Shown in pieces: positions 28,904 to 33,550 of a stretch of DNA of 64,000 nucleotides. The stretch lies in assembly GCA_024653945.1 (NCBI GenBank), contig JANLIT010000001.1:20641-84640 (forward strand). Reading direction: 5' to 3'. Below the pieces are notes generated by a model that was given only the letters and a program-made list of their open reading frames with translations, searched no databases and was not told where the DNA came from. The position numbers were made by a program, and so were the translations under genes. Source of the stretch: Candidatus Campbellbacteria bacterium (GTDB lineage Bacteria; Patescibacteriota; Minisyncoccia; Phycocordibacterales; EsbW-18). The first letter of the stretch is position 1, and the number at the start of each line of letters is the position of its first letter.

Positions 28904-29233
28904 TTAAAATTCATACAACACATCCCAGAAATATTTGATGCGGTCATTTTTTTCTATTTCTATTCCCTCTTGTTTGTAGAGTTTCATGCGTTGTGCCCTG
29001 TACTGCTCGTTTATCCAGATTCTCCCATCAGCATATACAATTCTATGAAAAGGGATTGATGCGCCTTCACCCTCTGCTTTTCCAAGTATTGAGGTAATGC
29101 TTTGTGCTGACATTGCACCACCACCTGCACTACGTGCAATACGCCCGTACGTCGTCACACGTCCGCTTGGGATTTTTTGTGCAAGGCGTACAACACGTTC
29201 GCTAAATGTTGGCCCAAGTACTTTTTTCTTCAT
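28904..29233 (-). CDS. alkyltransferase-like protein (MGMT DNA-binding domain with Phe in place of the catalytic Cys)
   Basis: YGRIARSAGGGAMSAQSITSILGKAEGEGASIPFHRIVYADGRI. The MGMT fold motif PCHRV reads PFHRI here. Confidence 0.6.
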   Translation of the reverse strand: MKKKVLGPTFSERVVRLAQKIPSGRVTTYGRIARSAGGGAMSAQSITSILGKAEGEGASIPFHRIVYADGRIWINEQYRAQRMKLYKQEGIEIEKNDRIKYFWDVLYEF

Positions 29234-29234
29234 A

Positions 29235-29283
29235 CGATTTCACAAAATCGCGTCGCGTAACTGTCCATTGAAACGCGACACCC
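29235..29283 (-). promoter_or_regulatory. operator/5'-UTR hairpin gtcgcgt-N14-acgcgac upstream of the ATL gene
   Basis: cgatttcacaaaatcgcgtcgcgt aactgtccattgaa acgcgac. The stem shows compensatory A/G-T/C changes relative to the 28804-28830 copy, while the loop is conserved. Confidence 0.5.
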
Positions 29284-29300
29284 TTATTCTACCATTCGCG

Positions 29301-29351
29301 CGCCTGCCTGCCCTGCCTGCCCTGCCTGCCGGCAGGCAGGCGGCAGGCAGG
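29301..29351. repeat. G/C-rich tandem-plus-inverted repeat (gcctgccct x3, then ggcaggcaggcggcaggcagg), a strong hairpin/cruciform
   Basis: Read directly. It marks the boundary between the ATL gene region and a GC-rich non-coding stretch. Confidence 0.7.
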
Positions 29352-30249
29352 AATTAGGGAATATAAAACGTAAAATATGGAAAATAATAATATGGAATAG
29401 AGAAAAGGCCCGAGCGCAAGCGTCGGACCTCTTCAGTAACTACCGGCGACCGGCAATGATACTGGAAAAAAGAACGGAATCTACGTCGACCTCTGGAGCG
29501 AACTCCTGAGGATAGATTAAGACGTTGGGAACAGAGCGGCCTATCGCTCTTGGATGATTTTGCGTGTCGCGACCGAAGTCGAGAGCACGTGTCCTGGGTT
29601 GGACATCATCCGTTCCCACGAGCCCTGTGTTTCACTGATGTGTCACACAGAACCATTACCGAGTTATTGCAGAAAGGGTGAGCTCCCTGCGATTTCTCGT
29701 TTGCCTCTGAGGCGATCGTGACCAATTCCTTTTAAGGGCGCTGGTCTCGTTCGTTGTGATGATGTCTGAAGGGTTTTGAGTCCTCCGAACACCCCACTGT
29801 AGAAGTTGTCGATTCTGCCGCAAGCGACAGAGTGCTAGGTCCGACATCTCCTCCTGGTGCAATGGAAACCGAGTTGCTCGCAAGATTGCTCCCGCGTGCT
29901 TCTCTCCCATAGTTTCCCTCGGCTCATTCCACGTTGTCTCACATCGACATTCCCTTTGAGGAGAAGCAAACCGAAGTTCGCAGTCATCCCAACTGGACTA
30001 TCGCGTCTGATGCTAGGCACCGGACTGAAGTGGTTTCAGAGAGAACATTGCACTGTTCTCCTTACCGTGTAACCAATCACTCTCGGTTTGTTGTGGTCCT
30101 CTTGCGAGAGCCGTAACGTACCGCATGCTTGGTATGTGAGAAGTATACGGATAGTGAAGTTGTTGTCAATCACATATCTCGTTTCTCAATAAAAAATACC
30201 TTTCGTCAAATTTTTTGTTTAAATGCATCCCTGTACCGAAAACAGCACG

Positions 30250-30278
30250 TTGACATACAGGAGATACCTGTATACTAT
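30250..30278 (+). promoter_or_regulatory. sigma70-type promoter TTGACA-N17-TACTAT whose spacer is a perfect palindrome (tacagg agat acctgta), a candidate operator
   Basis: -35 at 30250-30255, -10 at 30273-30278, exact 17-bp spacer. The inverted repeat spans 30256-30272. Confidence 0.6.
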
Positions 30279-30558
30279 CCATTTTGGTTCAGGCAAACAC
30301 TCGGTGGCTTGCTGGTCTTTCTGGGGGCGGGGATGAGCCCAAACCTAGAGAGTTTAAAGGGCGATGAGCCCGAACAGCCAATAGTAGACAGGAAACTGCT
30401 ACTGTTTCGAGGGTTCAATTCCCTTGGGGTGGCGGAGAGATGATCTTGAGTAGCGTAGACTAGGCGGGAGACGGAGAAGCTTTGGCTCTGGCCAAGGTGG
30501 AGTCGCCACTGAAAAACCGCCCTCTCAGGAAATATGCTCGAAGTCGCTTGAACCACAG

Positions 30559-30592
30559 TGTCACTCTTTCGGGGGTGACATTTTATTTTTTT
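30559..30592 (+). terminator. intrinsic terminator on the + strand (tgtcac...gtgaca followed by ttttattttttt)
   Basis: Hairpin followed by a 12-nt T-rich run. It closes a ~300-nt transcription unit that starts at the 30250 promoter. Confidence 0.5.
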
Positions 30593-30595
30593 ACA

Positions 30596-31162
30596 TTACT
30601 TTTCTCGCCGAAAACAATCAACGGAGTGGTCATTCACCATTCCCGTTGCCTGCATGTGTGCATACACCGTTGTTGAGCCAAGAAACTTAAATCCACGTTT
30701 TTTTAAGTCCAATGCAAGCGCATCCGATTCTTTTATTGTTGGTTTGTAGTCCTTGAGTGTTTTTATTTTGTGTTGGATTGGTTTTCCGCCAACAAAACTC
30801 CATATATATTTTGAAAACGTGCCAAATTCTTTCTGTACTTCAAGAAAACGCCGTGCATTGTTAATTGCCGCTTCAATTTTTGCACGGTTGCGAATGATGC
30901 CCTCATTTGTAAGAAGCTGACGTACTTCCCTTTTTCCAAAAAGTGCTACTCTCGAGGGATTAAACTGCGAAAATGCTTTTCTATAGTTTTCTCTTTTGCG
31001 CAACACCGTGAGCCACGAAAGACCGGCTTGTGCACTTTCAAGCACGAGAAATTCAAAAATCTTTTTGTCGTCATATACAGGAACACCCCACTCTTCGTCG
31101 TGGTACTTCTCATAGAGTTCGTCACCAATTTTGATCCACGGACAACGTTTTTTCATACACAC
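30596..31162 (-). CDS. tag: DNA-3-methyladenine glycosylase I
   Basis: YHDEEWGVPVYDDKKIFEFLVLESAQAGLSWLTVLRKRENYRKAF...IIRNRAKIEAAINNA matches the Tag family. Confidence 0.85.
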   Translation of the reverse strand: MCMKKRCPWIKIGDELYEKYHDEEWGVPVYDDKKIFEFLVLESAQAGLSWLTVLRKRENYRKAFSQFNPSRVALFGKREVRQLLTNEGIIRNRAKIEAAINNARRFLEVQKEFGTFSKYIWSFVGGKPIQHKIKTLKDYKPTIKESDALALDLKKRGFKFLGSTTVYAHMQATGMVNDHSVDCFRREK

Positions 31163-31308
31163 ATTCTACCACTGTAAAAAGAGCCCTAATATAATATAAA
31201 AAAGAAAAGATGCCCGACACCATTTTTCATTTTTACTGGCGTTTTAATATATTAGATTGACTCTTCTCGTGCCTCGATAATTTATCTTAATTAATTTTAG
31301 AGTTGTAA

Positions 31309-32535
31309 TTATTTAATATTTTTAATTATAGATTTGAATTCAGGCTTATTCTTATAAAAAGTGAAAATTTCCCATTCGTCTATTTCTTTTTTTCCTACGG
31401 TTTTTGCCTTGATTAATTTACTTAAATATTTATAAAAATCTTTGTGTTTTTCCAATAAAGCAAATTTACACATCTCAAAATCATCTCTAGTTAAGCTCCA
31501 ATCTTCTAACAGTAAAACTTTTTCTATATCTTCCAATTTTTTCCCTTGTTTTTTTAATCCAATACAGTAGTTAATAGCTATGTATTTTTTCTCAGAAGCA
31601 TCTATTTTGAGATTTGAAATAAAATTATATATGGATTTTGTATAATTATATTGTTCATGTTTGACTAAATAATGTAATGGATTGGTTAATAAAAAATTTT
31701 TATTTTTTATTTCTTCAGAAAAGTTAAGTTGAGCTTCTTGAATGATATAAGTTCCTATAAAATACAATAAGTAAAGTGAATCGGTAAGATATTTGTCTGT
31801 TATAGTTATAGTTTTGTTTGAATTATTTTTTTCGTCTCCATATCTTTTAATATACTCTCGATCCTTTTTTCCTTCATTGTGAACAATAAGATTTCTTATT
31901 TTAATTAATTTTTTTAAATCTTCCAAATTTTTACTAATTGGATCTAAATTAAGAGCCATGTCCTTTTTTAAAACTTTTAGTTTTCGATCTAATCCTTTTT
32001 CAATCAAAAGAGCTTCAATTTCTCTGTCAATTAGAAATTTTTGGGCCTCTGCTATGTTTTCTATATTTTCTAGCTCTTTATAGTTGATTGACTGATTTTC
32101 TAATGATAATTTCTTGTAATTCTTTTTATAATAAAAACTAAATAATTTCGAAAGTAAAATATCTAAAGTTGAAACCATAGACACTATAGTATTTTGTGCA
32201 AATAAATGTCCTTGTAATGGTTGTGTCTTTAAAACATCAACAAGTATCTCAGAAACATTACTTAATTCTTTTTTTGAAAATTTAAGTTTTAACTTACCTT
32301 TGGCATGATTTTTATTTTCCTTGGCTTTTTTCTTTAATACTTCCAAAAAGGGTTTAAGCTTTTTATTGTCATATTCTTGCGCATGTTTCCCAATTTCTCT
32401 AATTGATATTTCTTGAAGAAAAATATTGTTTTCAAAAACATTCTGCATATGTCTAAAAGAATCAATGTTCGTATTTGCCTCCCCTTTGATTAACTTTGTT
32501 TGTTGTTTTATTTTTGGTATCTTTTTAGTCTTCAT
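31309..32535 (-). CDS. Lys-rich hypothetical protein with a HEPN-like Rx4H motif (putative abortive-infection/defence RNase); extremely AT-rich (~27% GC)
   Basis: The motif KIRNLIVHNEG (R-x4-H) sits mid-protein in a 408-aa protein. Composition is roughly 15-30 points below its neighbours. It is a single gene with no operon partners. Confidence 0.5.
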   Translation of the reverse strand: MKTKKIPKIKQQTKLIKGEANTNIDSFRHMQNVFENNIFLQEISIREIGKHAQEYDNKKLKPFLEVLKKKAKENKNHAKGKLKLKFSKKELSNVSEILVDVLKTQPLQGHLFAQNTIVSMVSTLDILLSKLFSFYYKKNYKKLSLENQSINYKELENIENIAEAQKFLIDREIEALLIEKGLDRKLKVLKKDMALNLDPISKNLEDLKKLIKIRNLIVHNEGKKDREYIKRYGDEKNNSNKTITITDKYLTDSLYLLYFIGTYIIQEAQLNFSEEIKNKNFLLTNPLHYLVKHEQYNYTKSIYNFISNLKIDASEKKYIAINYCIGLKKQGKKLEDIEKVLLLEDWSLTRDDFEMCKFALLEKHKDFYKYLSKLIKAKTVGKKEIDEWEIFTFYKNKPEFKSIIKNIK

Positions 32536-32737
32536 ATTTATATGATATATCTTAAGAAATAGGGTCAGGCACCTTTTAATATCCCCACCATACACCCGAA
32601 AAACGAAAAGACAATGTGCACGAACAGTGGCAAGATTAAACCTCGCTCACGTAAAACCAAAAAGCCAAGTAAAAGAAAAGCCGCGTCCCGGGAGTTGTAT
32701 CCGGAAACGCGGTCTCAAAAAAGTGGTCAAACAGAGT

Positions 32738-33232
32738 CTAGAACGGCAACTCATCCTCCAACTCATCGAGAAGGATTGGCACCAGTGAATTACTGCTTAC
32801 TTCGGCAATCGCTTGAACACCACCTTCCTCGAGTAGACCACTCCCGATGGCGATGGTTAGCACGATTACCTCATCACCGTGTTCAGGGAACCCAGAGAAT
32901 GCAATGACAAGATTGCCGGCTCTGATACCACCGCCGTAGTGCTTCGGCTCAGTGTTGAGGTCGCGGCTCTGCCAAGCACTCACGTGGCCACGATTCTCCA
33001 GGAGTCGCTTGCCCTTGTCGAGAGCATTGGCGAGACACCGGCCCCGCCGAGCAACGTCATTCATGTTGCCCACCAGAGCAGAAAGTACTGGTGATGCGTC
33101 CGGACCGGCGTCGTTATCAAAAACGCACAGATAACCGCCAAGATTCCCGTCCTCAACCATCTGGGAAAGAGTCCTGGAACCAAGCGCCCTTTCAGCGAGC
33201 CGGAGAATTTTACCCAAATTTGGATATATCAC
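32738..33232 (-). CDS. GlcG/HbpS-like (DUF336) protein, GC-rich (~55%)
   Basis: LCVFDNDAG ... YGGGIRAGNLVIAFSGFPEHGDEVIV resembles the GlcG-family blocks. Weak. Confidence 0.35.
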   Translation of the reverse strand: MIYPNLGKILRLAERALGSRTLSQMVEDGNLGGYLCVFDNDAGPDASPVLSALVGNMNDVARRGRCLANALDKGKRLLENRGHVSAWQSRDLNTEPKHYGGGIRAGNLVIAFSGFPEHGDEVIVLTIAIGSGLLEEGGVQAIAEVSSNSLVPILLDELEDELPF

Positions 33233-33424: not shown

Positions 33425-33475
33425 GACTCACAAAAGAAAATACCCCAGATGAACTGAGATATTTTCTTTCGCGTG

Positions 33476-33550
33476 TGACCTCATCGGGATTCGAACCCGA
33501 GTTTACACCTTGAGAAGGTGACGTCCTGGACCAGGCTAGACGATGAGGCC
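33476..33550 (-). tRNA. tRNA-Glu (anticodon CUC)
   Basis: The reverse complement folds as a cloverleaf: acceptor GGCCTCA/TGAGGTC, D-arm with GG, anticodon loop TTCTCAA, T-arm TCGGG-TTCGAAT-CCCGA, discriminator A. CCA is not encoded. Confidence 0.8.

Follow-up and report, generated by a model that had tools for sequence, protein, structure and literature searches.

The stretch of DNA considered here (the window) comprises 64,000 nucleotides (nt) of a metagenome-assembled genome of Candidatus Campbellbacteria, a member of the Parcubacteria in the Candidate Phyla Radiation (CPR) (assembly GCA_024653945.1, contig JANLIT010000001.1, positions 20,641 to 84,640 of the forward strand). In a 1.36-kb gene-free gap at window positions 29234-30595, a sigma70-type promoter and an intrinsic terminator enclose an RNA core of 271 nt (30285-30555; about 300 nt with the terminator), in which a tRNA-like domain is joined to a copy of the L1 stalk of 23S rRNA. 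Judged by its sequence, the locus is a gene in its own right, whose non-coding RNA product is stable and highly structured, and we rate this RNA as belonging to a conserved family of Parcubacteria, a putative new RNA class built from recognisable modules.

The first-pass annotation of the region had proposed a promoter with an operator palindrome and a terminator-bounded transcript of about 300 nt, to be read as a regulated small RNA (sRNA) or as a micro-protein locus. The outline of this unit was confirmed: the TTGACA and TACTAT boxes with their 17-bp spacer and the hairpin followed by a T-run are all in place, and a start near 30285 gives a transcript of about 300 nt. The promoter, described as one of the best sigma70 matches in the window, does belong to the 23 sites that score at least 10/12 in a scan of the whole window, but it is not the best, since six sites score higher. 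The inverted repeat in the spacer is real and slightly longer than first described, with 7-bp arms and a 5-nt loop. At the same time, there is no second copy of it in the window and none in the promoters of the 12 other full-length relatives described below, which leaves the idea of a repressor-controlled promoter unsupported; the palindrome may serve as an operator at this locus, but it is not characteristic of the family.

As the annotation had stated, the interval holds no convincing open reading frame (ORF), the longest ATG ORF on the transcribed strand being the 36-amino-acid (aa) peptide already quoted there (from ATG 30333). Mechanically called ORFs of 104 aa (plus strand, TTG start) and 93 aa (minus strand) also overlap the region, and none of the three is conserved in the relatives. 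Among the 13 full-length family members, the longest ORFs are unrelated to one another and measure between 0 and 87 aa, which is not the pattern of a small-protein gene, and the sole peptide fragment common to the relatives is the translation of a conserved RNA motif. With relatives whose ORFs differ completely, the micro-protein proposal could not be maintained. The plus strand folds better than shuffled sequences (z = −2.66), and the antisense strand does not (z = −0.77). Thus, what stands of the sRNA proposal is a discrete, non-coding promoter-to-terminator unit; its product belongs to a conserved structured-RNA family and is not a generic base-pairing sRNA.

The modules of the RNA are listed in the table. 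The closing helix, P1, is predicted to close a multi-way junction that bears a tRNA-derived module and an L1-stalk module. Within the L1-stalk-like domain, helix (H) 76 is formed by 30444-30450 paired with 30524-30530, the conserved cores lie at 30455-30472 and 30499-30522, and an H78-like hairpin occupies 30479-30498. Three hairpins are placed in the variable 5′ domain by single-sequence prediction (30317-30352, 30359-30371 and 30383-30403, the last with a GAAA loop); the GAAA hairpin and the T-arm at 30409-30425 had both been recognised in the first pass. The motif GAUGAGCCCRAAC occurs twice in the variable 5′ domain (30332-30344 and 30363-30375), each time in a small hairpin, and was not seen by eye in the sequences of other family members.

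Table 1 Predicted features of the RNA gene, its surroundings and the free-standing L1-stalk copies (window coordinates, except for the numbered phage loci, which have their own)
Feature	Position	Strand	Remarks
ogt-like gene	28904-29233	minus	flanks the gap
Terminator of the 737-nt RNA	29421-29408	minus	own terminator
Promoter of the 737-nt RNA	30169-30142	minus	TTGACA-16-TATACT, 11/12
Sigma70-type promoter	30250-30278	+	−35 TTGACA 30250-30255, 17-bp spacer, −10 TACTAT 30273-30278; 10/12
Inverted repeat	30255-30273		ATACAGG-AGATA-CCTGTAT, within the promoter spacer
P1 closing helix, 5′ strand	30285-30294	+	UGGUUCAGGC; pairs with 30546-30555
AAA junction	30295-30297	+	holds the invariant AA of the family
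Acceptor-like stem, 5′ strand	30298-30302	+	CACUC
Variable 5′ domain	30303-30408	+	occupies the place of the tRNA D and anticodon arms
T-arm	30409-30425	+	GAGGG-UUCAAUU-CCCUU (GAGGGTTCAATTCCCTT)
Acceptor-like stem, 3′ strand	30427-30431	+	GGGUG, then discriminator-like G30432
L1-stalk-like domain	30444-30530	+	copy of 23S rRNA helices 76-78
P1 closing helix, 3′ strand	30546-30555	+	GCUUGAACCA; pairs with 30285-30294
Intrinsic terminator	30557-30592	+	11-pair hairpin 30557-30582, then TTTTATTTTTTT to 30592
tag (3-methyladenine glycosylase gene)	30596-31162	minus	convergent with the RNA gene; flanks the gap
Free-standing L1 copy, L281	4701-4838
Free-standing L1 copy, L305	363-505
Free-standing L1 copy, L284	2484-2566
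Free-standing L1 copy, L278	2328-2465
Free-standing L1 copy, L304	1228-1313
Free-standing L1 copy, L307	9-81
Free-standing L1 copy, L297	6911-6983

The match to 23S rRNA was sensitive to the search conditions. A default search of Rfam 15 returned nothing for the whole window at the gathering threshold, nor for a 3-kb slice in E-value mode; it was only with a 326-nt slice, for which the filters are laxer, that the domain surfaced as a match to positions 2128-2213 (H76-78) of the bacterial large-subunit (LSU) rRNA model (43.8 bits, E = 3.5e-12), and the match was lost again in an 11-kb search of the relatives. Nearly all of the 23S consensus nucleotides of H76-78 are retained, and the stems differ by compensatory changes. 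H76, H77 and H78 are present together with the sequences of the double-T-loop head, and pairing in helices 2-6 of the structure amounts to 73-100% and is accompanied by covariation. The relatives resemble E. coli 23S rRNA at positions 2101-2191, and E. coli 23S rRNA itself scores 79.7 bits with the covariance model of the family. The similarity is confined to these intervals (model 2128-2213, E. coli 2101-2191), no 23S sequence flanking the L1 domain; a UGACCC motif resembling H79 was also considered and was discarded, as BLAST to E. coli 23S rRNA gave no homology past position 2191.

Residues G30455 and A30512 are the equivalents of E. coli G2112 and A2169, and both positions are conserved across the family. 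In the ribosome, the platform formed by 2112 and 2169 stacks on the G19:C56 elbow pair of the tRNA (PMC3664808). The window RNA thus shares with the 23S L1 stalk its secondary structure, the sequence elements GUAGNAUAGGYGGGAG ... GGAGYC ... UGAAAUACCRCCC and the 2112/2169 platform, but differs in that it lies outside any rRNA gene with a promoter and terminator of its own, that H76 is short and closed, and that a tRNA-like domain is fused to the stalk, with P1 enclosing the whole. The resemblance can be close enough to mislead annotation: the L1-stalk domain of one relative (L231, 2190-2278) passes the LSU gathering score (61.6 against 50 bits), so that annotation can take RNAs of this kind for partial 23S rRNA.

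The other module has a visible origin in the relatives. In L255 (707-906) and L259 (367-566), the corresponding domain is a canonical tRNA-Asp(GUC) with GCCA, called both by Rfam (59.5 bits in L259) and by ARAGORN, and the L1-stalk domain follows directly. GCCA is also kept in L231, and the triplet has decayed in the other members (CGG in the window). By this comparison the domain is evidently tRNA-derived, and the arrangement in L255 and L259 may represent the ancestral state or, alternatively, a functional tRNA that carries the L1 stalk as a trailer. These two are marine contigs, and the family member sits inside a tRNA array there. A pattern of CAGGAAACTG followed by the T-loop, run on viral contigs, returned only class II tRNAs, so the GAAA hairpin together with the T-arm resembles the variable arm and T-arm of a tRNA; the matches to a GATGAGCCC double-motif pattern on viral contigs looked like chance or coding repeats.

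The family was recovered by scanning metagenomes with a pattern made of the T-loop, 20-50 nt and the L1 5′ motif, which gave 41 loci, about 30 of them true relatives by nhmmer. With the covariance model, 31 matches in metagenome contigs, of which about 25 are distinct, exceeded 65 bits, and the window ranked third among the 31 with 120.6 bits; the E-values of this model are rough, and the diversity and spacing of relatives recovered by an exact pattern are biased. Thirteen members are full length (251-359 nt) and share one order of elements. The 5′ half consists of the P1 5′ strand, an invariant AA, the acceptor-like 5′ strand (starting C-R-G), the variable domain (32-112 nt among the relatives) and the T-arm. 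The 3′ half begins with the acceptor-like 3′ strand (ending C-Y-G), placed directly after the T-stem and followed by G, and continues with a short linker, the L1-stalk domain, the P1 3′ strand and the terminator; in many members a variable 3′ domain is inserted between the L1-stalk domain and the P1 3′ strand. The window RNA has this layout, and its P1, AA junction and acceptor stem align in register with those of 11 other members. Most full-length relatives also have a sigma70-like promoter scoring 8-10/12, whose −10 box ends 3-20 nt before P1, and most relatives carry a terminator-like hairpin with a T-run just after the closing helix.

According to the cluster names of neighbouring proteins, the hosts include Giovannonibacteria (L245, L238) and Buchananbacteria (L254, L272-274), and further members (L232, L250, L268/L270) belong to Paceibacterota, Parcubacteria or the “Patescibacteria group”. 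The loci lie in varied, ordinary chromosomal contexts (rplU, rpsL-rpsG, rpsO, rpsI, comF, uvrC, and smpB with tmRNA), and in Buchananbacteria the RNA directly follows rplJ-rplL; such variation from locus to locus is as expected of a trans-acting RNA. tRNA genes are found on the same strand within about 600 nt in 8 of 24 family loci. About 0.9 Mb of unrelated genome loci gave no family match, no matching family exists in Rfam 15, and no description of an L1-stalk-like non-coding RNA was found in the searchable open-access literature.

Conservation of the fold was assessed on a core alignment of 22 sequences, in which 88.3% of the cells are paired and both partners have changed in 22 of the 29 pairs. 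For covariation the core scores 0.589, against 0.215 for shuffled alignments (none of 500 reached the observed value) and at most 0.16 with slid partners. The T-stem covaries in three of its five pairs around an invariant T-loop, and H78 covaries as well. In P1, all seven pairs are changed on both sides among 12 members, and P1 and the acceptor stem taken together have 98.5% of cells paired and double changes in 10 of 11 pairs, in an alignment whose anchors, the AAC motif and complementarity, were set by hand and which leans towards structure. Adding the phage copies described next and E. coli 23S rRNA gave the same picture.

A scan of IMG/VR with the two L1 core motifs returned 40 loci, which is roughly the number that we estimate would be expected by chance, and 14 of these were confirmed by the covariance model as carrying an L1 module. 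Of the 14, L312, L285 and L283 have 23S-like flanks and look like rRNA carry-over, and L276 is ambiguous. The other ten loci, representing about six distinct modules on viral contigs of 57-153 kb, are free-standing and have the same covarying fold. Copies L281 and L305 lie inside arrays of 9-11 tRNA genes, L284 and L293 just upstream of an eight-tRNA array, and L278/L286/L294 as well as L304 about 25 nt upstream of a start codon. A stricter pattern that included the T-loop found no match in IMG/VR, so the fused form seems to be cellular, apart from a few tRNA-array contigs of unassigned origin.

Several known RNA classes were considered and rejected. A tRNA is contradicted by the presence of only a T-arm and a 5-bp internal acceptor-like stem, with no ARAGORN or Rfam tRNA call (tRNA-Sec model, 15 bits against a gathering score of 47). 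For tmRNA, one-piece or permuted, ARAGORN gave no call in the window and Rfam no match, and locus L249 has a canonical tmRNA besides its family member. A 23S gene or pseudogene fragment does not agree with similarity in one domain only and with compensatory changes in all helices across about 25 copies. A uL1 operator in a ribosomal protein leader does not agree with a terminator-ended unit that runs towards the 3′ end of the convergent tag; tblastn with E. coli L1 and L11 queries detected neither gene in the window or in any fetched locus (2.5 Mb). The rplJ-rplL locus of Buchananbacteria has no adjacent rplKA, which is uninformative as to uL1 in that host. The T-box leader and RNase P RNA models gave no match at E ≤ 10 in the 326-nt slice; there is no same-strand gene downstream, as a T-box would have, and the GGAAAGUCC and ACAGAA..GGCUUA motifs of RNase P RNA were absent on reading. 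Signal recognition particle RNA, 6S RNA, the cobalamin riboswitch (prompted by a GCCACUG motif), class II tRNA and tRNA-Sec were excluded by ARAGORN and Rfam and by missing core motifs.

Some of these classes nevertheless help to place the RNA. The distal part of T-box Stem I and the specificity domain of RNase P are double-T-loop elbow binders and share this motif only, without sequence identity to the L1 stalk; unlike them, the window RNA has neither a regulated downstream gene nor a catalytic core. The tRNA-like domains of tmRNA and YrlA resemble it in setting an acceptor-like stem on a canonical T-arm, with the D/anticodon region replaced, inside a larger RNA. The acceptor stem of the window RNA is, in contrast, internal, with no free CCA end and no tag reading frame detected by ARAGORN; moreover, in L249 the canonical tmRNA coexists 1.2 kb from the family member, and Rfam gave no YrlA match. 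The autoregulatory uL1 sites in mRNA (the bacterial L11-operon leader and the archaeal L1 mRNA site) are likewise extra-ribosomal mimics of the 23S uL1 site, but they are short operator fragments within rplK/rplA mRNAs, whereas the window RNA holds a complete H76-78 in a terminated, stand-alone unit that is not beside rplKA. GOLLD and ROOL are also structured non-coding RNAs of unassigned function, often found beside tRNA genes and in phages (PMC5737381); they have no sequence or model similarity to the window RNA, which is much smaller and has recognisable modules.

The stop codon of tag abuts the terminator of the RNA gene, and a neighbouring 298-aa protein corresponds to NCBI locus tag NUW02_00190 (100% identity), through which five related Campbellbacteria contigs were reached. 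Their genes around the gap are syntenic at about 70% nucleotide identity, and the content of the gap differs: the tag/ogt-like interval is 43 bp in L115 (1505-1548), holds three unrelated protein genes each in L112 (6964-9575) and L229 (1371-2863), and holds two RNA genes in the window. By this comparison the interval is a variable insertion spot in Campbellbacteria. A homologue of the RNA is absent from the syntenic site in all five relatives and from the rest of these contigs, and the RNA would therefore be either accessory in Campbellbacteria or sited elsewhere in those genomes. Synteny followed through the tag gene gave no homologue in 80 genome loci, BLAST of the 1.36-kb gap against phage and plasmid collections gave no match, and an exact-sequence look-up of three window proteins returned no record. 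Comparison with the genes inserted in the relatives excluded the gap as a decayed version (pseudogene) of them.

The second RNA gene of the gap is a candidate of about 737 nt (29400-30136, minus strand), divergent from the L1-stalk RNA gene, with many GNRA- and UUCG-capped hairpins (minimum free energy −279 kcal/mol, z = −5.3). It had no Rfam match, even on small slices, and no similarity to E. coli 23S rRNA, phages, plasmids or any fetched locus, and is thus an orphan. An imperfect 27-nt direct repeat (29387-29413 and 31191-31217, 78% identity) brackets both RNA genes and tag and could be an insertion remnant or chance. A GC-rich perfect palindrome of CCTGCCTGC repeats (29297-29351), the source of spurious microRNA matches in Rfam, is situated between the 737-nt RNA's terminator and the start codon of the ogt-like gene. 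Further along, two ORFs of 428 and 164 aa (31309-33232, minus strand) have a GC content of 27-37% against about 44% elsewhere and no Pfam, NCBIfam or PADLOC match; this stretch, with a tRNA-Glu(CTC) gene beside it (33475-33550), looks like a horizontally acquired islet.

We tentatively propose, as a reading with nearly an even chance of being right, that the RNA acts by molecular mimicry of the ribosomal exit site (E site), in which an L1 stalk meets a tRNA. The stacking platform of the L1-stalk head, G30455/A30512, would dock on a tRNA elbow supplied in cis by the fused tRNA-like domain, and the result would be a rigid “L1 stalk plus tRNA” particle that imitates the contact between the stalk and the E-site tRNA. 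The particle would then be recognised by the usual readers of that surface, among them perhaps ribosomal protein uL1. No peptide coding would enter into this mechanism, and nothing suggests antisense pairing. Docking of the stalk on its own tRNA-like domain is the simplest model in view of the T-arm, which is fused upstream in most members; T-loop and L1 motif lie 58-62 nt apart in 18 of the 25 distinct members, with 46-76 nt allowed, though the search pattern that recovered the family biases this spacing.

Besides this bias, several observations weigh against E-site mimicry in cis. The hand-anchored alignment of P1 and the acceptor stem favours structure from the outset. A D-loop GG that could complete the elbow is found in 9 of 12 members, which is not significant against a background expectation of 0.53. 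Several phage copies have no fused tRNA-like domain, so docking in cis cannot be the whole story. The RNA is missing from the syntenic site in the five Campbellbacteria relatives. Finally, protein binding would explain the near-identity to 23S rRNA in the region contacted by uL1 no less well than tRNA docking, and since the uL1-binding region is strictly kept, uL1 binding is a serious alternative or addition.

As an alternative, the L1-stalk copy could be a decoy or regulator that titrates or stores free uL1, the tRNA-like domain being a scaffold or remnant. In bacteria and archaea, uL1 does bind sites on its own mRNAs that mimic rRNA; the RNA retains H77-H78 in full, with almost every consensus nucleotide of the 23S site and a covarying H78; the L278 and L304 copies stand in an operator-like position about 25 nt before a start codon; and several family loci adjoin ribosomal protein genes. 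We give this reading a limited but real chance, for it leaves the invariant T-arm and its fixed spacing unexplained, the RNA is not in an rplKA leader, and a large group of Parcubacteria (OD1-L1) has no rpL1 (PMC5220378; bioRxiv 10.1101/2022.01.07.475337). If the stalk head instead captured the elbows of cellular or phage tRNAs in trans, whether to sense, chaperone, protect or sequester them, then the conserved docking platform, the same-strand tRNA genes within about 600 nt of 8 of 24 family loci and the phage copies in or beside tRNA arrays would be accounted for; however, those tRNAs would face competition in cis from the fused tRNA-like domain, the RNA showed no second element for contacting tRNA (such as a specifier or an NCCA-binding bulge), and the proximity to tRNA genes could come simply from co-transcription or a common origin, all of which makes such a tRNA binder unlikely. 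The tRNA-like domain might also be a cleavage signal for RNase P or RNase Z, comparable to the mascRNA of MALAT1, that releases a separate L1-stalk RNA or, in L255/L259, a functional tRNA-Asp, with P1 as a processing stem. In these two loci a canonical tRNA-Asp with GCCA immediately precedes the L1 domain, which agrees with this, as does the conserved, discriminator-like G after the acceptor 3′ strand, but most members have an acceptor stem of 4-6 bp, a decayed CCA and replaced D and anticodon arms, and both P1 and the AA junction show conservation and covariation, as they would in a mature fold; we regard a processing cassette as improbable.

The readings closest to the earlier annotation and to simple rRNA descent fare worse. 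The promoter, palindrome and terminator are real and the 36-aa ORF exists, but neither ORF nor palindrome is conserved, and conservation resides in structured modules with compensatory changes rather than in a single-stranded seed, so a repressor-controlled base-pairing sRNA or a 36-aa micro-protein gene is very improbable. Equally improbable is chimeric pseudogene debris of 23S rRNA and tRNA fragments, or a separately encoded L1 stalk of a fragmented 23S rRNA, in spite of the LSU model match, the variable insertion spot and the fact that some 23S rRNAs of CPR bacteria lack H78 (bioRxiv 10.1101/2022.01.07.475337). About 25 divergent copies keep the architecture through compensatory changes and with promoters and terminators of their own, no 23S sequence flanks the domain, and H76 is closed within the RNA, which leaves no strand free to pair with a 23S remnant. 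A wider proposal covers all of the free-standing L1-stalk copies: these may constitute an unrecognised class of trans-acting RNAs, fused in Parcubacteria and placed in tRNA arrays in large phages, and tied to the known loss of uL1 in much of the parcubacterial lineage, which we consider a doubtful generalisation with a minor chance of being correct.

If this wider proposal were true, a protein-free L1-stalk/tRNA particle could capture tRNAs or factors that read the E site, a fourth natural class would join the double-T-loop elbow binders, and a functional rRNA domain would for the first time be seen redeployed as an independent gene. The RNA is small and modular and thus suited to cryo-electron microscopy, and the family can be converted to a covariance model for genome annotation, which is desirable given the confusion with partial 23S rRNA. 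The phage copies of the L1 stalk suggest use of the module in phage-host conflict over translation. CPR bacteria (Patescibacteria) have minimal genomes and unusual ribosomes, with uL30 lost in all and uL1 or bL9 in large subgroups, and to our knowledge very little is known of their non-coding RNAs. Against this background, a conserved and strongly promoted mimic of L1 stalk and tRNA points to a hitherto unknown translation-related layer in these organisms, for which uL1 homeostasis, tRNA handling and the decoying of E-site factors are candidate roles.

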